DNA of 63,910 nt, filler included, from an uncultured bacterium (lineage in GTDB: Bacteria; CAZSTA01): NCBI GenBank assembly GCA_964609495.1. It is 8 parts of 8 records of this genome, joined end to end, with 100 filler letters (N's around TTAATTAATTAA, not from the genome) between each part and the next. Parts side by side here need not be neighbours in the genome. Positions count along the whole stretch, not along the records: positions 50,563 to 58,563 come from CAZSTA010000172.1; 7 more parts are not named here. One strand, 5' to 3'. The notes under the pieces are model-generated. The model had not been told where the DNA came from. It was given only the letters and a program-made list of their open reading frames with translations, and did no database searches. This document shows, in pieces, positions 8,075-59,283 of the stretch (within the stretch, counting starts at the first letter, position 1; the number at the start of each line of letters is the position of its first letter). The position numbers and the translations under genes are program-made.

Positions 8075-8584
8075 AATACATCCCCTCCTCTGGATTTACA
8101 GTTAGTATGATCTATCTACTCTATTATACAACTTTCTAGTCAAGTTGACAAGTTTTTTTACTTTAAGTCAAAGCAATGTAAACTTTGTTTGTGCTGGGGA
8201 ATGTGATTCTCCCCCTCACCCCATCCCTCTCCTACGAGGAGAAAATAGTAAATTATAAGAGATGATAGATAGATCACTGTTAAAGAGGTCTCAAGACTAT
8301 CAAGCTTGCACCTATCCTAAATTAGATGATCAGTTAAGAAATATCACTTAAAACAGAGATATAGTAAGACGAGGAAAGACAAAAACTGCTACTTTCTCGA
8401 TCCGAAATTGGGCGAACTTAAGCAGGGTAGAGGGCAGGAATCGGGAAAACTATCTAAATCAGATGAGCAANNNNNNNNNNNNNNNNNNNNNNNNNNNNNN
8501 NNNNNNNNNNNNNNTTAATTAATTAANNNNNNNNNNNNNNNNNNNNNNNNNNNNNNNNNNNNNNNNNNNNGGGGAGAGGGGGAG

Positions 8585-16953: not shown

Positions 16954-17053
16954 NNNNNNNNNNNNNNNNNNNNNNNNNNNNNNNNNNNNNNNNNNNNTTA
17001 ATTAATTAANNNNNNNNNNNNNNNNNNNNNNNNNNNNNNNNNNNNNNNNNNNN

Positions 17054-25349: not shown

Positions 25350-25511
25350 ATTTTTTATTCCTTATTTAAGTTGATTATAGATAAAACGGAGCAGTCACTA
25401 TTTCGTATAACNNNNNNNNNNNNNNNNNNNNNNNNNNNNNNNNNNNNNNNNNNNNTTAATTAATTAANNNNNNNNNNNNNNNNNNNNNNNNNNNNNNNNN
25501 NNNNNNNNNNN

Positions 25512-33790: not shown

Positions 33791-33913
33791 TTTCTATGCC
33801 NNNNNNNNNNNNNNNNNNNNNNNNNNNNNNNNNNNNNNNNNNNNTTAATTAATTAANNNNNNNNNNNNNNNNNNNNNNNNNNNNNNNNNNNNNNNNNNNN
33901 ATCGGGGGTATCA

Positions 33914-42020: not shown

Positions 42021-42572
42021 AGATGCTCCATTCCGAATTAGCGACCTAATGATGATAAAATCCGTGGATGCATATAGAATCTGGGATCTGAGATCTAATT
42101 TACTTTGTATTACACCCTCCCCCTATCCCCCTNNNNNNNNNNNNNNNNNNNNNNNNNNNNNNNNNNNNNNNNNNNNTTAATTAATTAANNNNNNNNNNNN
42201 NNNNNNNNNNNNNNNNNNNNNNNNNNNNNNNNAAAGTTTCATAGAATTCAATTTCATATTCACAATTCCCTCCTTATGATCTTAATTCGTGTTAATTCGG
42301 GTGTTTCGTGGACAATATCCTGTAGCTACTCCCTTTCCTTCTTGCAGTTTTGTATTACTCTCACCCCCTTTTAATCTTATTATCATATTATAACATAACT
42401 TTAAAATCTGTCAACTCTTCTTTTTTGGGCTCGAAGAAGTTAAGCGCTTTTGCTTAGTTGCTTTGGATTTAGTTCTTTTCCTTCCGCTTAAGAGTCGCAC
42501 GAAATTGCCCCAAAAACCCATTGCAATAAAGTTGGCAAAGTTTTGCATCTCTACTCATCTCCTCTTAATATA

Positions 42573-50423: not shown

Positions 50424-50594
50424 TTTTACACTTTCGCAGGGATGCATATAAAATTGGGGATCNNNNNNNNNNNNNNNNNNNNNNNNNNNNNNNNNNNNNN
50501 NNNNNNTTAATTAATTAANNNNNNNNNNNNNNNNNNNNNNNNNNNNNNNNNNNNNNNNNNNNCACCATTCTCTTGTCTTATATTCAATCTTATG

Positions 50595-50651
50595 TTATAC
50601 TTTAAGTAAATAATCTTAGAATTTTGTATATTAACCTTACTTAAAGTATAA
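50595..50651. promoter_or_regulatory. AbiEi-type autoregulatory inverted repeat
   Basis: Perfect 15-bp inverted repeat TTATACTTTAAGTAA-27 bp-TTACTTAAAGTATAA ending 2 bp before the abiEi ATG. Confidence 0.7.
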
Positions 50652-50653
50652 TT

Positions 50654-51487
50654 ATGGATAAGCAGAGTGGTCTAAGTAAGACTGAATATCGTATCTTAGC
50701 CAAGCTTTCTAAAGCAGGAAAGCAAGTTTTTACTGCCTCTGAATTCGACGAAGTATTTCCCGATATGAAGGAAGACACCAAGTATGTCTATCTAAAGAGG
50801 TTAGCAGACAAGGGTAGCCTTATTAGGTTTGAGCGGGGTAAGTATATAATAGTTCCTTTGGAAGCTGGCGTTGATAAGGAGTGGACTGAAGATAGCTTCT
50901 TACTCGCTTCAAAGTTGGTTGACCCCTATACCATCGCTTATTGGACAGCCTTAAATTACTGGGGATTTACTGAACAAATTTCTAATACTACCTTTGTTCA
51001 AACGACCAAGAAGAAGGAAAAGAGGAAAATAAAGATATTTGATGATAAGATTGTTTTTGTGCAGATAAAGGAGAAGAACTTTTTTGGGATAACTAAAATC
51101 TGGTTTCGCAATAGAGAGATAAATATAACTGATAAGGAAAAGACGCTCCTTGATGCTTTGGATAAGCCCCAATATTGTGGTGGTTTGCAGGAAGGCATTA
51201 AGGCTCTTTGGAATGCAGCTCAAGACGAGGAGTTTGATTGGGATAAGCTCTCAAGATATGCTTTAAGGTTTTCTAACCGAGCGGTGTTAAAGCGTTTAGG
51301 GTATCTTTTAGAATTTATTAATGTGCCAAATAAAGAGAATTATCAAAAGATATGGCAAGAGAATTTATCTTCCGGTTTTATTTGGCTTGATCCCATATTA
51401 AAGGAAGGAAAGATAAAGCATAATACCAAGTGGCGAGTTAAGGTCAATATCCCCGTAGCCAAGTTTATTAGCACTTTAGTCTATTAG
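50654..51487 (+). CDS. Type IV toxin-antitoxin AbiEi family antitoxin
   Basis: wHTH with L-x-x-KG-x-L-x-R-x-x-RG-x-Y; IAYWTALNYWGFTEQ, TDKEKTLLD and KRLGYLLE motifs. Confidence 0.88.
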   Translation: MDKQSGLSKTEYRILAKLSKAGKQVFTASEFDEVFPDMKEDTKYVYLKRLADKGSLIRFERGKYIIVPLEAGVDKEWTEDSFLLASKLVDPYTIAYWTALNYWGFTEQISNTTFVQTTKKKEKRKIKIFDDKIVFVQIKEKNFFGITKIWFRNREINITDKEKTLLDALDKPQYCGGLQEGIKALWNAAQDEEFDWDKLSRYALRFSNRAVLKRLGYLLEFINVPNKENYQKIWQENLSSGFIWLDPILKEGKIKHNTKWRVKVNIPVAKFISTLVY

Positions 51488-51646
51488 ATAATCCAACCTG
51501 AACTGATAAGGAACATTGATGAGGGTCATCTGAAGCGTTTCGGCAGATATTGGGAAGCTCAGCTTTCCCATCAAGTAGCTAATCTTCCCGACTTTGAGGA
51601 AGTAGGAGAAGATTTCTTAACAATTATTGACACCTATTTTAGATAG
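51488..51646 (+). pseudogene. Internally deleted AbiEii nucleotidyltransferase toxin remnant
   Basis: Directly after abiEi: IIQPELIRN joined to ...YWEAQLSHQVANLPDFEEV, which resembles an AbiEii C-terminus. Only 52 codons, no ATG, no catalytic KGG/SEDxD motifs. Confidence 0.55.
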
Positions 51647-51712
51647 CCAAATTTGGGGTTCAATTCCCGGTAGATTCCAAAGGAATTTGTCAGTGAATAA
51701 AATCTTGACTTT

Positions 51713-51807
51713 GTGATCTACTGAGACTCGATTAAGAGAGGGTTGAAATTGAAACGGTTCACTACATAAGTGTCGCCAGAAAAAGGGAATACAGATAGAC
51801 TCGATTA
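51713..51807 (+). CRISPR. Degenerate single-spacer CRISPR unit
   Basis: 37-nt repeat-like GTGATCTACTGAGACTCGATTAAGAGAGGGTTGAAAT, a 36-nt spacer, then a partial repeat sharing AGACTCGATTA at an exact 73-bp period. Confidence 0.55.
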
Positions 51808-51970
51808 TAATTATAAAGTTACTCAGAAAGCTCTAATAGTTTAGAGAATAAAACGTTTGAGTTAGTAGAACAGATGCTAAGGGAGATGTTTATGTAATGA
51901 AGAATCATGGGGACTGTTGAAAGTAATTCAATAGTCCCTTTCTTAATCTTGTAGGAACATTGAGAGGAGA

Positions 51971-52963
51971 TTGAAGGTGAATAAAGAAGCATTTTTGCGG
52001 AAATTAGCTATGATTTATTATCTGATGCTTCATCCTAAAGGAGCTGATAGGTATGATCTTTTAGAGTGCATTAGAGATTTAGATTTAGAGGAAAGAGGTG
52101 AGAGAACTTTCTATAGGGATATCCGTGAGTTGAGACAAATTGGAGCTAATATAGAGTGCCGAGATGGGAAATATTACCTCTTAGATGAACCAAATATCTT
52201 TAAGCAGAAGCCTAGCTTAGAGGAGTATAAAGTTCTATTTACAAGCGTTTACTTTTTATCTAAACATCGTAATACCCCTTTTGAGAAGCCAAGCCTAAAG
52301 CTATTAGATAAGATGTACCTAGAGATTCCTAAGCATCTTAGAGCTAGGATGAAACAAATAATAAAATGGATATCTATCGGACCAGATCAGATAGCCGATT
52401 ATAACGGAGTAAGTAAATCTTTTAAATTGATCGAATGGGCTATATCTGAAAAAAGGAGGTTAGAGGCTAAGTACTTCTCCTTCTATGAGAATATGACCTA
52501 TCAATTTTTTCTTGATCCCTACGGATTAAAATTTGATAAGCACTGGTATGCTATAGGATATGATCACTACCATCAAGATATAAGGACATTTAAGATTAAA
52601 CGTTTTAGGGAGGTAAGATTAACTAAGGAGAGCTTCAAACATCCTGTGGATTTCTCTTTAGATGATTTCTTTGGTCCAAGTTGGCGAATTTTCCGAGAAA
52701 AGGATATAGTCAAAGTCAAAGCTAAATTTTCAGCTAGGGTGGCTCCTCTGATTAAGGAAAGAGCGCCTCACCCAAGTCAGAAGATAGAGAAATTCCCTGA
52801 TGGAGCGATTATCTTTACCGTTTCGGTCAGTGGGATGAAGGAGATATCATTGTGGTTACTAACATTTGGAGCTGAAGCTGAGGTATTAGAGCCGCAAGAG
52901 CTACGTCAAAAGATGATAGATACAGCTAGGGAGATGCTCAAGCTCTATGACGAGGAAAAATAA
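51971..52963 (+). CDS. HTH-WYL-WCX transcriptional regulator
   Basis: ERTFYRDIRELR HTH; DPYGL...HWYAIGYDH...IRTFKIKR WYL domain; WLLTFGAEAEVLEPQELR. Confidence 0.93.
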   Translation: MKVNKEAFLRKLAMIYYLMLHPKGADRYDLLECIRDLDLEERGERTFYRDIRELRQIGANIECRDGKYYLLDEPNIFKQKPSLEEYKVLFTSVYFLSKHRNTPFEKPSLKLLDKMYLEIPKHLRARMKQIIKWISIGPDQIADYNGVSKSFKLIEWAISEKRRLEAKYFSFYENMTYQFFLDPYGLKFDKHWYAIGYDHYHQDIRTFKIKRFREVRLTKESFKHPVDFSLDDFFGPSWRIFREKDIVKVKAKFSARVAPLIKERAPHPSQKIEKFPDGAIIFTVSVSGMKEISLWLLTFGAEAEVLEPQELRQKMIDTAREMLKLYDEEK

Positions 52964-52975
52964 ATTTTAAAAAAG

Positions 52976-53016
52976 ATCCTACTGACAAAAGAGATGTCAG
53001 TAGGATTTGGTATAAT
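52976..53016 (+). promoter_or_regulatory. cas operon promoter with a WYL-type operator
   Basis: Perfect 12-bp inverted repeat ATCCTACTGACA-7 bp-TGTCAGTAGGAT over the -35 position, then an extended -10 TGgTATAAT (53011-53016). Confidence 0.75.
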
Positions 53017-53058
53017 ATAGAAGGACAGGAAACATTATATCGGAAAGGAGAAAATATT

Positions 53059-55848
53059 ATGAGATCTGTTGAAAGGGACATCTTGCTTGAATTTGGATTG
53101 ATAGATGAGCCATTGAGCAGAATTTATATCGAGGAAATAGCCAATAAGAAGCTAGTTAGATATAAGGATATCATTCACGATACTGGACCTAAGAAGGGAG
53201 AGAGCCTCTTCACTCACGTCATTAACGGGGTATTCTTGATCGAACGCTTGCGTGATGTTCTTCCTATATCTGATATCGAAGCCGAAGTGCTATTTACCGC
53301 TTATACTATCCACGATATAAATAAGCTTCCCGAGTATGGTGGTCAAAGATATAACGATATAGCCACAAAGGAAAATATTGCAAGAGAGTTGGGAAACTTG
53401 GAGATGGAGTTATTCTTCCCGGAATATGAGGATTATCTCGATGATATTAGAATCCTAGCGCGCTCTCATTCTGGACATTACCACTCTGATGGAGAATCTC
53501 TAAAAAAATCATATAATCCTTACAAATTGGGAAAGAATAGAATAGATCAGCTTAAACACATTATTCGGGCGGTGGATGCAGTAGATCTATCACAGGAATT
53601 AGAGGAGAGAAGTGAGAAAAACAAATTCCTCTCCGAAATAAACATTTTCTCGGATACTCAATATACCTTCTGCCATCATAAGCTGACCGAACATCGTGGG
53701 ATATTAACCAATATCATTCATAATGAGATTGTCTCTTATCTAGAAAACGAGCTTGATCTATTACCTCTCCTATTCTATCCCGATGGAGTAGCCTATCTGG
53801 TGGAGAAGAATAGAGAGTTATCTCTATCTAAAGACGATCTGGAGAATATCGGAGAGAGGGTGGCAGAGCGAGTGGCGGATATGACTAGGGCAAATTACAC
53901 AGATTTTATCAATCCTGCTAGTACCGGGATAAGGATCGATCCTAAATGCCTGAGCTTGAATATTTCCCCAAAGAAGATCATTAAGGAAGTGTATAATATC
54001 ATTTCCAGAAGAAAGTTTAGGATCGCTTATATGGAGGAGGGCTGTAAAAAGCGAACTCTTAGGAATATCCAAAAACTTAGGAAGAAAGCCAAAGATGAAT
54101 CTCTTAGAGTTCAGTTGGATAAAGTGGAAAGAGAGATTTCGAGCAGTTCCTCTCTACTCCCTAAAGATGAGGATAAATTGAGAATGGGAGAGCTACTGAA
54201 GACCTATTATATCTTCATCAACGACGAATATTTCAATAAAGATATTGAGCAATCGTGGAAGTATATCTACGATCTTCTAAGCATTGATGAGGATAAAATA
54301 ATCGCTCTTGAGTATTTCGATGCTCGCTATGATCGAGCCTTCCTGGTGGTTAAAGATCTAGAGAGCAATTTTGAGGATCTATATGAGGTGATTGTCGAGG
54401 ATAGCCAGCAATTATTCGGTGAAATCTCCTCCGAGAAAGATAATCAATTCAGCGCTCTAAAGGAGTATGTCAAGAATTACACGGATTTCAGCTTCGCCTT
54501 CGAGCGAGAGATAGATTTTACTCGATATCTTCAGAACTACACTCAGAGCAATCATAAACAATGTTGCTATTGTGGCTCTGAATTTCCTACAGATGAGTGG
54601 ATGACTGCTGATGTTCCTAAAGGCATAAAAGTGCAAAAATTCTCCAATCGTCTTCTAGGAGGACAAGGAGATCCTAATCGTAATATATGCGATATCTGTA
54701 AGATCCAATTTCTAGTGGAGAAGCTGAATTACGATATCTTAGGTGGAACCAATGTATATCTACACCTATATCCTTACTCCTTCCATCCCGACATATTCCT
54801 TAAAGCTCTCAACAATGAGCTTAAAAATATTATAGCTCAGGATATCAGCGCAATCCTACTGAAGACAGAAGCCTCTCTGCAAGAGTTCGTCAGCGAAAAC
54901 AGAATCAAACTGATCTACTCACCTACTAAGATCAACGGTAATCCCCTCCCCAAATTCGCTGATATTTTGGGCAATAACTTCATCTTTCCGCTAAATTGCG
55001 TAGGGGGTAACGACTCCGAAAGGTTTCTCTTCGCCCTAGAAAATGCACTCTTCTTGCAAAAATACCTTGGATGTAAAGTGTTGCTGACCGATTCCGCAGT
55101 TCCTATATTGGCTAAGCAGGAATTCAACGATGTCTTCATCGATAATATCCCCGCCTCGTTCCGAGGATTATTGCAGTTAAATGATCTATCCAAATCTGAA
55201 TTAGGGGAGGTCTGGCGTAAAATTAAGATCCTTTATAGCCTCAAAAGTATAGTTCACGATCCGAAATCGAAGAGGAACGAGTTTCTCACCCTCATCCGGA
55301 GCCTAATCGGAGATGAGCTTCAGATATACTATGTCGTAGATCGCCTCTTGGAGAATAAGTTGAGGAATATGAGGGATCAGGGTAGAAGAGAGGGATTGAG
55401 TCTAAATCTTTCCAAAAAACTGATCACTTTAATAAATGATCTGATTAAAGGAGGGGAAAAAGTGCAGGAGCTTAAAACTTTAGCTCAAATAGCATGGGAT
55501 GCTAAAATTAAAGGAGAGACACTCAGAAGAAATTCGCTCTTAAAACCCTTAGATATGATCCTCGAGAAACTCTCTCATCGAAGTGAAATGCTCGATTTAG
55601 AGGTGATTAAGGCAGCCCTGGTAGAGGATATCTTCGCCCATCTAGAACGTATTGCCTCTGAGCAATATAAACCAGGAGCAACTAAGCGAGAAAGAATAAA
55701 ACAATATGTGGATCAGTTCTTCACCGGAGTTCTAGATAAAGGTTTCAAGGGCGATATAAACAAGTTGCTAGCTGATGAAAAAACTATAAGATCCGCTTAC
55801 CTGTTCTATGTTAAAGAGCAGATAGGTAGCAAGGAAAAGGAGGTCTGA
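53059..55848 (+). CDS. cas10d: Type I-D CRISPR large subunit Cas10d/Csc3 with N-terminal HD nuclease domain
   Basis: SLFTHVING, TIHDINK, HSGHYH, RGILTNIIHN, PLLFYPDGVAY; zinc finger CCYCG...CDIC; FSNRL. Confidence 0.92.
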   Translation: MRSVERDILLEFGLIDEPLSRIYIEEIANKKLVRYKDIIHDTGPKKGESLFTHVINGVFLIERLRDVLPISDIEAEVLFTAYTIHDINKLPEYGGQRYNDIATKENIARELGNLEMELFFPEYEDYLDDIRILARSHSGHYHSDGESLKKSYNPYKLGKNRIDQLKHIIRAVDAVDLSQELEERSEKNKFLSEINIFSDTQYTFCHHKLTEHRGILTNIIHNEIVSYLENELDLLPLLFYPDGVAYLVEKNRELSLSKDDLENIGERVAERVADMTRANYTDFINPASTGIRIDPKCLSLNISPKKIIKEVYNIISRRKFRIAYMEEGCKKRTLRNIQKLRKKAKDESLRVQLDKVEREISSSSSLLPKDEDKLRMGELLKTYYIFINDEYFNKDIEQSWKYIYDLLSIDEDKIIALEYFDARYDRAFLVVKDLESNFEDLYEVIVEDSQQLFGEISSEKDNQFSALKEYVKNYTDFSFAFEREIDFTRYLQNYTQSNHKQCCYCGSEFPTDEWMTADVPKGIKVQKFSNRLLGGQGDPNRNICDICKIQFLVEKLNYDILGGTNVYLHLYPYSFHPDIFLKALNNELKNIIAQDISAILLKTEASLQEFVSENRIKLIYSPTKINGNPLPKFADILGNNFIFPLNCVGGNDSERFLFALENALFLQKYLGCKVLLTDSAVPILAKQEFNDVFIDNIPASFRGLLQLNDLSKSELGEVWRKIKILYSLKSIVHDPKSKRNEFLTLIRSLIGDELQIYYVVDRLLENKLRNMRDQGRREGLSLNLSKKLITLINDLIKGGEKVQELKTLAQIAWDAKIKGETLRRNSLLKPLDMILEKLSHRSEMLDLEVIKAALVEDIFAHLERIASEQYKPGATKRERIKQYVDQFFTGVLDKGFKGDINKLLADEKTIRSAYLFYVKEQIGSKEKEV
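55462..55848 (+). CDS. cas11d: Cas11d small subunit translated from an internal start in cas10d
   Basis: AAAGGAGGGG RBS then an in-frame GTG (codon 802), giving a 128-aa helical C-terminal product. Confidence 0.7.
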   Translation: MQELKTLAQIAWDAKIKGETLRRNSLLKPLDMILEKLSHRSEMLDLEVIKAALVEDIFAHLERIASEQYKPGATKRERIKQYVDQFFTGVLDKGFKGDINKLLADEKTIRSAYLFYVKEQIGSKEKEV

Positions 55849-55849
55849 A

Positions 55850-56827
55850 ATGAGTATCCTAGAGAAATATCAAGATAAGGTGTTAGAAGCTTATAGCAAT
55901 TTCCCTAAAGGTAGATATGCAAGTATAATCTTGGTGCGTAAGACGGAATCAGAGGTGATATTTCGCACTGAGGGAAGCGGGGAGAAATTAAGCAAAGAAT
56001 TAGTCCGCGCAGGGGCAAAAGACGGTGAGTCTATTCCCAGAGTAGTGATCAGCAAGAGAAAGCAGGTGGCGGTCGAGAGGCGCACCGGAAGGGAATTGCT
56101 GAGAAGGAATAGTTTACTTTTCGGTAAAACCGAAAAAGAAGAGGATATCTGTGCCCTCAATCGCAATAACCCTTGTGGAAGGTGTATAGATTGTATGTTA
56201 TATGGCTATGCGGTGGGAAAAGGTGAAGAAATTGGAGCGCAGAAGTCAAGGGTGATCACTGATGATGCCTTCAGTATTCTACCAGCTTACTCGATCACAG
56301 CCAATAAAACCTTCAATGCCCTTTACGAGAATGGAACTATGCGCGATCCGTTTACCGGAAAACCTTCCACAGGTATCAACGAGGATGAGTATGTCAAGCC
56401 AGAAGCGCATTTCCTCGATATCGAGACCCTGAAGGATGTTACTTTAGGAGAGATCAAGTATGTCTTGGGGAATATTCTGCGAAGCACCCGCTATGGAGCG
56501 ATCTCCTCCCGTTTAGGTCGTGTTAAAAATCTGATGGCGGGTATGATCTTCAGCGATTGCGAGATCTTCAGCAATTTGGAGTTGACTCAGAGAGTATATG
56601 ATCTCCTGCAAGGAGATGGAGGGAGTGATTTCCCCTTAAAGAGTCAGGATGTCTTAGAAGCTGTGCACCAGGCCATAGGGGAATTAATAAGACAGGTTGC
56701 CGGAGAGATCACTATAGTTCCTCAAGAAGAGGTAGAGGGAATCATAAAGGAGATAATCGAGTTATATGGAGATGCCTCTGGGGTTCGGAGTATGCTTCAG
56801 GAGATCACATCTATGTATGAAACTTAG
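55850..56827 (+). CDS. cas7d: Type I-D backbone subunit Cas7d/Csc2
   Basis: IFRTEGSGE, VISKRKQVAVERRTGRELLR, CGRCIDCMLYGYA, QKSRV and RYGAISSR motifs. Confidence 0.93.
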   Translation: MSILEKYQDKVLEAYSNFPKGRYASIILVRKTESEVIFRTEGSGEKLSKELVRAGAKDGESIPRVVISKRKQVAVERRTGRELLRRNSLLFGKTEKEEDICALNRNNPCGRCIDCMLYGYAVGKGEEIGAQKSRVITDDAFSILPAYSITANKTFNALYENGTMRDPFTGKPSTGINEDEYVKPEAHFLDIETLKDVTLGEIKYVLGNILRSTRYGAISSRLGRVKNLMAGMIFSDCEIFSNLELTQRVYDLLQGDGGSDFPLKSQDVLEAVHQAIGELIRQVAGEITIVPQEEVEGIIKEIIELYGDASGVRSMLQEITSMYET

Positions 56828-56918
56828 AAGAGGAATGAGGGGGAAAAGCTGAGTGGGATGAGCGGATATCTCTTATCCCACTTATAATCCCATCTTCATG
56901 AAAAGGAGAGAGTTGATT

Positions 56919-57500
56919 ATGTCTTTACATATATATAGCTGTTCACTGAGTTTGATGGAAAANNNNNNNNNNNNNNNNNNNNNNNNNNNNNNNNNNNNNN
57001 NNNNNNNNNNNNNNNNNNNNNNNNNNNNNNNNNNNNNNNNNNNNNNNNNNNNNNNNNNNNNNTCGGATACCTATTGGTATAAGTTCGTTCAGAATGCCAT
57101 CTCGGTATATAGAAATGAAAGGACAAGGGCAGTCAATTTTCCCCAATTCGGCAAGATCAAATCCCTGGCTTTAGGCAATGAGGCGGTATTCTACATAATC
57201 AGTCGAGAGGATATAAGGGATGATATTCCGAGTTATATTCGTCTGGGGAAGTTTATGAGCAAGGCTAAATTGGATGTGGAGGAAAGCGAATATAAAGAGG
57301 TTGAGGAGGAAGAAATAACGATCGATATCATTCTCAATCCCAATGATCTTTCCCATCCTGAGCAGTTGCGTATCTTCCAGATGTATAATATTCATCCTTC
57401 TCCCCTCATCAGATATGCGGTGCTAAGCGGGAGATTTTATAAACTTAGGAGAGGAACGTATCTACCGGTGGAGATGAGATTCGGGGTGAGCGGATTGTGA
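56919..57500 (+). CDS. cas5d: Type I-D Cas5d/Csc1 (spans a 100-N gap)
   Basis: Position between csc2 and cas3; NFPQFGKIK and PSYIRLGKFMSKA motifs. Confidence 0.85.
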   Translation: MSLHIYSCSLSLMEXXXXXXXXXXXXXXXXXXXXXXXXXXXXXXXXXXSDTYWYKFVQNAISVYRNERTRAVNFPQFGKIKSLALGNEAVFYIISREDIRDDIPSYIRLGKFMSKAKLDVEESEYKEVEEEEITIDIILNPNDLSHPEQLRIFQMYNIHPSPLIRYAVLSGRFYKLRRGTYLPVEMRFGVSGL

Positions 57501-58563
57501 AAATAAGGATAAAATCTCAGTATGAAAAGGTGAATCCGACCAATCCCTTTCCCTCCATAGTCGATAAGCTCCTATATCACCAATATCGAACTTATGAGGC
57601 ACTCAAAAACCGTGATTTGGTGATAAATACTTATAACACTGGCACGGGAAAGACTAAGGCGGCTCTATTTCATCTATTCGATCTTCAGGATACAAATATC
57701 CTCTTCATCGCTCCCACTAATGAGCTAATTCATCAGCATGTAGAGGATGTTCAAAAGTTCATTGATGATGGGGATTTAGATTTTAGGGTTCTGGAGGTCA
57801 ATGCCTCACTTATAAGAGAACTTGATATAGACCGCAATTATCTGAGGAACGGGGAGAAGCTCTATCGTTTGCTTGAGAATCCCTTGGAGTTTGCGGAGGA
57901 ACTACAAATCGATCCTGATGATTATGTGAAGAAACCGATAATTATGGTGGTCAATCCTGATATCTTCTACTATGGATTATACTCCACCTACAACTCCCAC
58001 GATCGGCGAAATATATTCGAAAAATTTCTCACAAGCTTCGATTACATCATAATTGATGAGTTCCACTACTATAATGCTAAACAATTAGCGAATTTCCTTT
58101 TCTTCTTCTCTATCTCTAAGGAGTTCGATTACTTCGCTTATGGACGAAAGATATGTCTTCTCTCTGCTACTCCTGGAAATATCGAGGGATATCTGGATCG
58201 TTTGGAACTCGATTATGAATTGATCTCCCCCGATAATGAAGCTCCCGAAAGCGATAGCTATGAGAAGATGAAATCCCTGACCGATCTTGAACTTGAACTC
58301 TCGGCGATTACATTGGAGAGGCTGGTAGAAGAAAAAGGGAATCTAATCAGGGAATACCAAAGGGATAAGGGACTCGATGGAGCGATAATCAGTAGCGCGC
58401 TTTGGCGAATCAATTTGATAAACCAGTATTTAACTGATCTATCTCCTAAGCGGATCACAGGGCGGAGAGCAAAGAGAATAGAAGATTGGCTAGGAGCAAT
58501 CCTCTGATCCTAGCCACGCCCACAGTTGATATCGGGTATAACTTCGATAAGATGAACAAGAGG
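57497..58563 (+). CDS. cas3: Type I-D helicase Cas3' (frameshift at ~58460; truncated by the contig end)
   Basis: HQYRTY, NTGTGKT, APTNEL, IIDEFHYY and LLSATP motifs; motif ILATPTVDIGYNF continues in another frame after 58462. Confidence 0.88.
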
Positions 58564-58663
58564 NNNNNNNNNNNNNNNNNNNNNNNNNNNNNNNNNNNNN
58601 NNNNNNNTTAATTAATTAANNNNNNNNNNNNNNNNNNNNNNNNNNNNNNNNNNNNNNNNNNNN

Positions 58664-59283
58664 ATCTCTTCTCCTGTAACTTGAGCGAAATATTGACGAT
58701 GTTCGTTGCTACGATGGTCGGTTGGCCCTTGCCCCTGCTTCCCTTACAAATCCTGTGGATGAATCTGATCACCGATGTCTTCCCCGCGATGGCTTTAGCT
58801 ATGGAGGGACCGGAAGAGGGGATTATGAAACAATCCCCTCGAGATCCAAACGAGCAGATTCTAACTAGAGGATTTCAATTTATGATCTTGAGGCAGGGGA
58901 TAGTCTTAACTGCGGTAACCTTGCTCTCTTACCTATGGGGACTCAATCAATATGGACCTGGTCATAGAGCTATAACGATCTCCTTCATGACTCTGAGCTT
59001 ATCCCAACTTCTTTTTGTTTTTAACTGTCGTTCTGCTTATTCGAGCATATTCAAGATGGGACTCTTCTCTAATCTATATATAGTGGGGGCATCAATATTG
59101 ACGATAGGACTTCAACTGCTGGCGGTCTATCTTCCAGTGCTTCAGTTGGTCCTCAAGACTGTTCCTCTCGGCCTACTCGATTGGGAGGTGATATTGATCG
59201 CCTCCTTGACCCCGCTAGTTATAGGAGAGATTTATAAGATAGGGCTGAGAATAAAGGTCCCGCTTGAGGAACGAAGGATATAG
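58664..59283 (+). CDS. Cation (Ca2+-type) transporting P-type ATPase, C-terminal fragment
   Basis: PLLPLQILWMNLITDVFPAMALA, PRDP and FNCRS motifs; 5'-truncated by the contig edge. Confidence 0.9.

Follow-up and report, generated by a model that had tools for sequence, protein, structure and literature searches.

A degenerate repeat-spacer-repeat element upstream of a WYL-headed type I-D cas operon, perhaps a decayed CRISPR relic

The DNA analysed here, which we refer to as the window, is a stretch of 63,910 bases made up of individual draft contigs, each about 8 kb long, ordered by falling length and joined by N44-TTAATTAATTAA-N44 linkers (8471-8570, 16954-17053, 25412-25511, 33801-33900, 42133-42232, 50463-50562 and 58564-58663); runs of 100 and 10 N within it are scaffold gaps. 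Since the window is a concatenation of contigs, genes that flank a linker are not neighbours, as is the case for cas3' and the cation-ATPase fragment at 58681. The repeat-like element that is the subject of this work is located in the contig at 50563-58563 (8001 bases), where all genes are on the plus strand.

This contig carries an intact abiEi antitoxin gene (50654-51487, 277 aa; PADLOC AbiEi, E 1.8e-77; Pfam AbiEi_1), followed by a 52-codon C-terminal stump of the abiEii toxin gene (51488-51646; PADLOC AbiEii, E 1e-5). The PADLOC match of the stump is limited to the last 42 profile positions (217-258 of 260), with about 216 N-terminal residues gone, and a 40-aa piece of it had no match in Pfam. 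An earlier interpretation of this DNA, to which we refer as the sequence-only reading, had called the two genes an orphan antitoxin and a dead toxin, and the profile matches bear out both descriptions. Directly 5' of the abiEi start there is a perfect 15-bp inverted repeat (50595-50609 and 50637-50651, 27 nt apart), which we take to be the type of site at which AbiEi antitoxins reportedly autoregulate. The stump is separated by 324 nt from a gene for a WYL/WCX-domain regulator (51971-52963; Pfam WCX 8.1e-23, WYL 7.3e-14; PADLOC CRISPR-associated WYL 2.4e-35), and it is in this gap that the repeat-like element is found. Between its first unit and the WYL start, at 51909-51939 on the plus strand, a terminator-like hairpin of 13 pairs followed by a T-rich tail is a candidate operator, attenuator or terminator, and, at about 51880-51925, tiny reading frames are seen together with a strong ribosome site, AAGGGAG.

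Downstream of the WYL gene, after a 95-nt gap that holds a perfect 12-bp inverted repeat (52976-53006; again a candidate operator, attenuator or terminator), are cas10d/csc3 (53059-55848; TIGR03174, 1.4e-42; 166 homologues), csc2, also called cas7d (55850-56827; Pfam Csc2, 1.9e-96; TIGR03157), csc1, also called cas5d (56898-57500; TIGR03159, 5e-21), with a 100-N scaffold gap inside at 56963-57062, and the helicase gene cas3' (57497-58563; TIGR03158, 3.4e-42). The type I-D gene set is thus complete for cas10d, csc2, csc1 and cas3', and the type I-D operon with a WYL gene that had been proposed is confirmed by the Pfam and TIGR profiles. In cas3', whose product is about 760 aa in relatives, the reading frame switches near 58460 at a short G run, and the other frame continues with a conserved LILATPTVDIGYNF motif to the contig end. 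The suggestion that cas3' is possibly disrupted is thus borne out by the frame switch, which may itself be an assembly error, as metagenome contig depths are only about 3-7. The apparent truncation of the operon at 58563, in contrast, is an assembly edge. The genes cas6, cas4, cas1 and cas2 and the CRISPR array are located past the contig end, and a scan of the window for a CRISPR array showed none to be present.

The element consists of a 37-nt repeat-like unit (unit 1 or psiR1, 51713-51749), a 36-nt spacer-like segment (psiS, 51750-51785) and a second repeat-like unit (unit 2 or psiR2, 51786-51822), all on the plus strand. Unit 1 is made up of a hairpin remnant, CTCGATTAAGAG, three extra nucleotides and then GTTGAAAT. 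The sole support for unit 2, inside which a TATAAT is found, is the 11-mer AGACTCGATTA, which occurs twice, at 51724-51734 and, 73 nt further on, at 51797-51807. In these letters and coordinates, including the 37-nt unit that ends in GTTGAAAT and the 36-nt spacer, the sequence-only reading was exact. The two units agree at 18 of 37 positions (49%) and, outside the 11-mer, at 7 of 26 (~27%); unit 2 is the more degraded one, which is a weak criterion when taken alone. There are two units only, fewer than the at least three near-identical repeats of an ordinary array. Unit 1 is located 222 nt 5' of the WYL gene, which directly precedes cas10d, and lies on the same strand.

For the comparison with known repeats, 37 distinct 37-nt I-D repeats, taken from 39 loci with a downstream array, were used to derive a consensus, GTnnnAAnnAnAAGAATCTCGATTAnGAGATTGAAAC, and a covariance model. 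In this consensus, a 5-bp hairpin stands directly 5' of the handle ATTGAAAC, and the repeat ends in ...AATCTCGATTAnGAGATTGAAAC. Unit 1, which reads ACTCGATTAAGAGA, GG and GTTGAAAT, resembles by eye the consensus TCTCGATTACGAGA-TTGAAAC; its core is CTCGATTA..GAG..TTGAAA, with AGG as a 3-nt insertion, and its ATTA loop and CTC/GAG stem are identical to those of the clade consensus. The stem has 3 bp and is separated by the 3 extra nucleotides from the GTTGAAAT handle, an arrangement short of a Cas6-type hairpin. The unit folded no better than shuffled sequences (z +0.28 and +0.66), and no hairpin was obtained for unit 2, while the units of relatives form a hairpin of 4-7 bp. A scan of the plus strand 5' of unit 1, which covered consensus matches only, detected no promoter-like site, and, given also the strong terminator-like hairpin downstream, any transcript of the element would in the simplest case form the 3' end of the abiEi message.

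To place the element among related loci, we took advantage of Cas10d, whose nearest counterpart among 5.8 billion proteins is 88% identical (on a 3.2-kb contig) and the next one 46%. A scan with the single Cas10d protein found no loci, and an alignment of 25 Cas10d proteins led to 80 loci from species-representative genomes, mostly of Poribacteria and Chloroflexota, plus one Cytophagia MAG; the WYL protein, when used to scan metagenome contigs, had no match. Csc2 and Cas3' are both encoded 3' of Cas10d on the same strand in 65 of the 80 loci, and in about half of the loci a WYL gene is present upstream. When 39 loci were scanned outside their arrays with their own repeat cores, 46 matches were obtained, against 0 with shuffled cores, most of them forming a second, upstream array in locus L070. 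A scan of all 80 loci with 32 cores gave matches in 36 of them; with shuffled cores, the number was 6.

Solitary units or clear mini-arrays upstream of cas10d were found in at least 17 of the 80 loci (L001, L014, L016, L024, L027, L028, L031, L039, L040, L042, L043, L044, L057, L059, L061, L066 and L073). Typically, they consist of a near-canonical first unit, often with a GAAAA or GAAAT end, about 25 nt, and a second unit that keeps the hairpin and has lost the handle, with a period of 48-66 nt. In 15 of the 17 relatives, the first 11 bases after unit 1, base 6 being ignored, match a GTN-flanked seed target no more than 600 nt away, with GTT, GTG or GTC as the flanking bases on its 5' side, compared with 1 of 340 shuffled-spacer trials. 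The one in L073 results from a tandem duplication and is an artefact; 14 of the 17 are credible, at a distance of 106-230 nt (L001, L014, L016, L024, L027, L028, L031, L039, L040, L042, L043, L044, L057 and L066); base 6 is mismatched in 11 of these 14. The target sites overlap -10-like boxes just 5' of the next gene's ribosome-binding site. This gene belongs to DUF3800 in 4 of 10 cases tested and is without a Pfam match in 5 of them; it is sigma-70-like in L001 and is cas10d in L042. Pseudo-spacers are similar between species (for example L016, L039 and L059). These results show that the mini-array concept, on which the sequence-only reading had drawn, is valid for the class: related I-D loci do have, close to WYL or cas10d, mini-arrays whose pseudo-spacer seeds pair with GTN-flanked promoter sites.

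The same kind of search was less productive for the window's own spacer. With registers from 51745 to 51761, no GTN-flanked seed target at ≤1 mismatch was found in the 8-kb contig, in which the sequence-only reading had likewise seen no convincing target. Nor did the wider search for a PAM-flanked seed that it had put forward reveal a target at the spacer start in the contig or in the 64-kb window: all starts from 51600 to 51971, on both strands, were compared with the 4812 GTN sites of the window and gave 5 matches, where about 3 are expected by chance, with 0 at the spacer start and 0 in the locus. The ATTGAAAC at 51748-51755, considered as an alternative handle register, was also without a target in the contig. 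Comparison of the region and of the spacer with phage and plasmid collections returned no match, or matches with E ≥ 1. A target could be present in the unsequenced remainder of the genome.

Parts of the stretch were found in 20 metagenome runs, none of them an RNA run, which come from salt marshes, marshes, marine sediments and similar sources, and contigs of four runs (sediment or marsh metagenomes) were aligned to 50563-58563. In runs X2 and X4, respectively, 51573-51951 and 51591-51869 are unchanged, and the carriers are probably the same strain. Run X3 holds a diverged strain: one of its contigs matches 51498-51728 with 29 differences and is unlike the window from there on, and another matches 51817-52391, so that the unmatched part, 51729-51816, begins in unit 1 at the hairpin and reaches through unit 2. 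An exact 20-mer of unit 1 had one match in metagenome contigs (L081), which was taken as chance; this match falls in the last part of a coding frame, in a sequence otherwise unlike the window.

Taking into consideration the anatomy of the element, the absence of a target in the DNA searched and the contrast with the related loci, we favour, with some reserve, the reading that it is a decayed CRISPR-derived repeat-spacer-repeat relic that does not work as a guide. Its ancestor would be either a former upstream array, of which the trailer end remains, or a regulatory mini-array like those of related I-D loci, and in its present form the element would probably provide no guide RNA that the I-D Cascade could use. 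We infer this loss of function from the 3-bp hairpin, displaced 3 bases from GTTGAAAT, from the reduction of the second repeat to 11 bases and from the lack of a nearby PAM-flanked target. The full-length spacer and the 73-nt period argue for an ordinary repeat-spacer-repeat piece rather than for an evolved regulatory mini-array. The sequence-only reading had proposed a candidate regulatory guide RNA, with a decayed array end as an equally possible alternative. The class that it invoked is real in related loci, but this copy lacks a target, a proper hairpin, a shortened spacer and a match in the diverged strain; its alternative is the better supported of the two.

The main competing explanation, which we consider unlikely, is that the element encodes a functional cr-like RNA, comparable to CreR/CreA or to the I-D mini-arrays, which would regulate a promoter beyond the available sequence. 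The steps that this would involve, namely transcription, maybe by read-through from abiEi, an end at 51909-51939, a cut by Cas6d, loading onto Cas10d-Csc2-Csc1 and repression of a GTN-flanked promoter, are doubtful in the same degree. It is clear that such elements are common in the I-D clade, given the 17 of 80 loci and the 14 of 17 with credible targets in the promoter of the gene that precedes cas10d, and mini-arrays of this kind are described for I-D in PMC10120712. The place and strand of the window's element fit, as does its handle-like GTTGAAAT, several relatives' first units also ending in GAAAT or GAAAA and not in GAAAC; the WYL regulator gene downstream is like the 'cargo' regulators of published I-D clades, and the cas3' frameshift, if real, would leave a Cascade that can only bind. 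Against a working guide stand the lack of a seed target in the 8-kb contig and the 64-kb window, the weak and displaced hairpin, the lack of a promoter-like site 5' of the unit and a spacer of 36 nt, which is full length, whereas those of relatives are shortened. Moreover, 51729-51816 is unmatched in the diverged strain, and the five relatives that have WYL directly before cas10d, as in the window, show no clear mini-array.

A further explanation, which we likewise hold to be unlikely, is that the CRISPR likeness is accidental, the letters of unit 1 belonging to some other short conserved non-coding element (about 40-60 nt, 51675-51734) and the second copy of the 11-mer being a chance duplicate. 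The similarity scores give this explanation some weight. The covariance model of the 37 I-D repeats found no match at E ≤ 10 in the whole window; when the search was restricted to the 489-bp intergenic stretch, the best match was the hairpin part at 51726-51739, with 8.2 bits and E 0.12. In searches of equal size, the first units of relatives reach 10.4-23.4 bits and their degraded second units 8.1-13.5 bits, and it is the latter that the window's unit resembles. In a gapped comparison with 32 repeat cores, unit 1 scored 27, which ties it for rank 3-7 in the window, the score being equalled or exceeded at 6 other places, and shuffled sequences reach 27-30; its absolute similarity scores are about those of the best chance matches in 128 kb. 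Independent 11-mer pairs at a spacing of 45-100 nt number ten in the 64-kb window, with two besides that of the element at 73-74 nt. The two units agree little outside the 11-mer, as given above, and Rfam, searched with 51480-51980 at gathering thresholds and at E ≤ 10, returned no CRISPR-DR, tRNA or other family. The look of a tRNA 3' end that 51655-51679 has by eye was dropped in the light of this search. Taken alone, the repeat likeness is at the edge of noise, and the 11-mer pair is not beyond chance.

The metagenomes also bear on this point. A segment at 51686-51728 (in one case 51675-51734) is common to several otherwise different contigs of the four sediment and marsh metagenomes; loose contig ends pile up before 51675-51690 and behind 51724-51734, and the depth at this segment of about 40 nt is 28, 16 and 17, compared with about 4-10 nearby (2-4 times). 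The segment includes the first 16 nt of unit 1 and spans the first copy of the 11-mer; neither the rest of the window nor loci L001-L081 contain another copy of it. Since comparable short pile-ups are seen at conserved motifs within abiEi and csc2, the shared segment may be a conserved non-coding motif of other organisms. Half-sites of the 52976-53006 palindrome were considered for it and set aside, 2 of 10 positions being mismatched, as at about 15 other places in the window.

What makes chance unlikely is the coincidence of a repeat-like core with a duplication at the modal period, on the cas strand and at a position 5' of the cas operon. In 39 arrays of relatives, which provide 785 canonical spacings, the period ranges from 68 to 83 nt and is most often 73 nt, the value also found for the window's element; the best repeat-like match of the intergenic stretch thus falls on the very 11-mer that is duplicated at this period, where relatives have their mini-arrays, and the ATTA loop and CTC/GAG stem are letters of the clade consensus. 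From the pair counts, the gapped scores and the period, the joint chance of these coincidences can be put, as a rough estimate, at about 1e-4 to 1e-3, to be set against a mini-array prior of about 0.15-0.2 per I-D locus, as far as Table 1 of PMC10120712 and our 80-locus scan indicate. When the likeness is combined with where the element lies, its strand and its 73-nt period, descent from a CRISPR appears likely. The organism's own I-D repeat could resemble unit 1 far more than do the repeats of relatives compared here.

A live I-D cr-like RNA with a 3-nt expanded linker, a GAAAT end and a full-length spacer, steering a Cascade made binding-only by the frameshifted Cas3' to a distal promoter, would, if true, mean a CRISPR system wholly converted to a transcription regulator under WYL control, and is very unlikely. 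Against the decayed relic, which we prefer, stand also two observations: a simple relic leaves unexplained the segment of about 40 nt found in multiple contexts, and X2 and X4 keep the element unchanged, which is persistence, though in what is probably the same strain.

Elements of this class are already known, and that of the window could at most be counted as a new, poor example of it. In the account of Shmakov et al. 2023 (PMC10120712), I-D mini-arrays target the promoter of cas10d or 'cargo' genes located between the mini-array and cas10d, and two Cas3 clades are described; Liu et al. report creA-like elements found by hand for I-D (10.1101/2023.03.10.532045). The bench tests presented in the available text of these two works concern I-F1 (PMC10120712) and I-B, I-E and V-A (10.1101/2023.03.10.532045), with none there for I-D. 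The window's element shares with the I-D mini-arrays, as PMC10120712 presents them, two units of which the second is the worse, a place upstream of the cas10d operon, a regulator gene in between and adjoining toxin-antitoxin genes; it differs from them in that its hairpin is broken, its spacer measures 36 nt, its first unit is only doubtfully close to the cognate repeat, and a partial target next to a PAM is missing from the DNA searched. With the CreR and CreA RNAs of I-B, I-E and V-A it has the concept in common, a degenerate mini-CRISPR next to cas genes that directs the effector, through partial pairing, to a promoter, but targets and expression are shown for those RNAs in the text of 10.1101/2023.03.10.532045, whereas no target was found here. 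Phage solitary repeat units and RNA anti-CRISPRs (PMC10651486) are, in the description given there, also isolated repeat-like sequences outside an array; the window's element, in contrast, is chromosomal, stands beside its own cas genes and has no phage match.

If functional, the element would add another CRISPR effector that regulates genes via a degenerate guide, which is predicted in print for I-D (PMC10120712, in the part that deals with this type). If it is the relic that we favour, it would illustrate the decay of such elements where a protein regulator, WYL, heads the operon. A more useful by-product of the analysis is the set of clean mini-arrays paired with GTN-flanked seed targets in the cas10d-first I-D clade (Poribacteria, Chloroflexota and others), and these pairs are better bench subjects than the element of the window.

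As regards the possible source of the relic, three relatives have large arrays 5' of cas10d and on the cas strand, namely L053 (47-8701), L055 (41-5753) and L070 (6582-8813), the last with an I-D-type repeat and a degenerate final unit, and the occurrence of such arrays in relatives makes one of this kind a possible ancestor of the window's remnant. Degenerate trailer ends of ordinary arrays resemble the element in the 73-nt period, in a decay that is worst on the last unit's 3' side and in the cas strand, the strand of the upstream arrays of L070 and L055; they differ from it in that the window has two units only, no intact repeat adjoining and abiE genes in the place of the array. In L018, a degenerate repeat-like stretch at about 8340-8366 has a gapped score of 27, equal to that of the window's unit, and is located about 550 nt upstream of a WYL gene that stands directly before cas10d; this stretch is perhaps another such relic.
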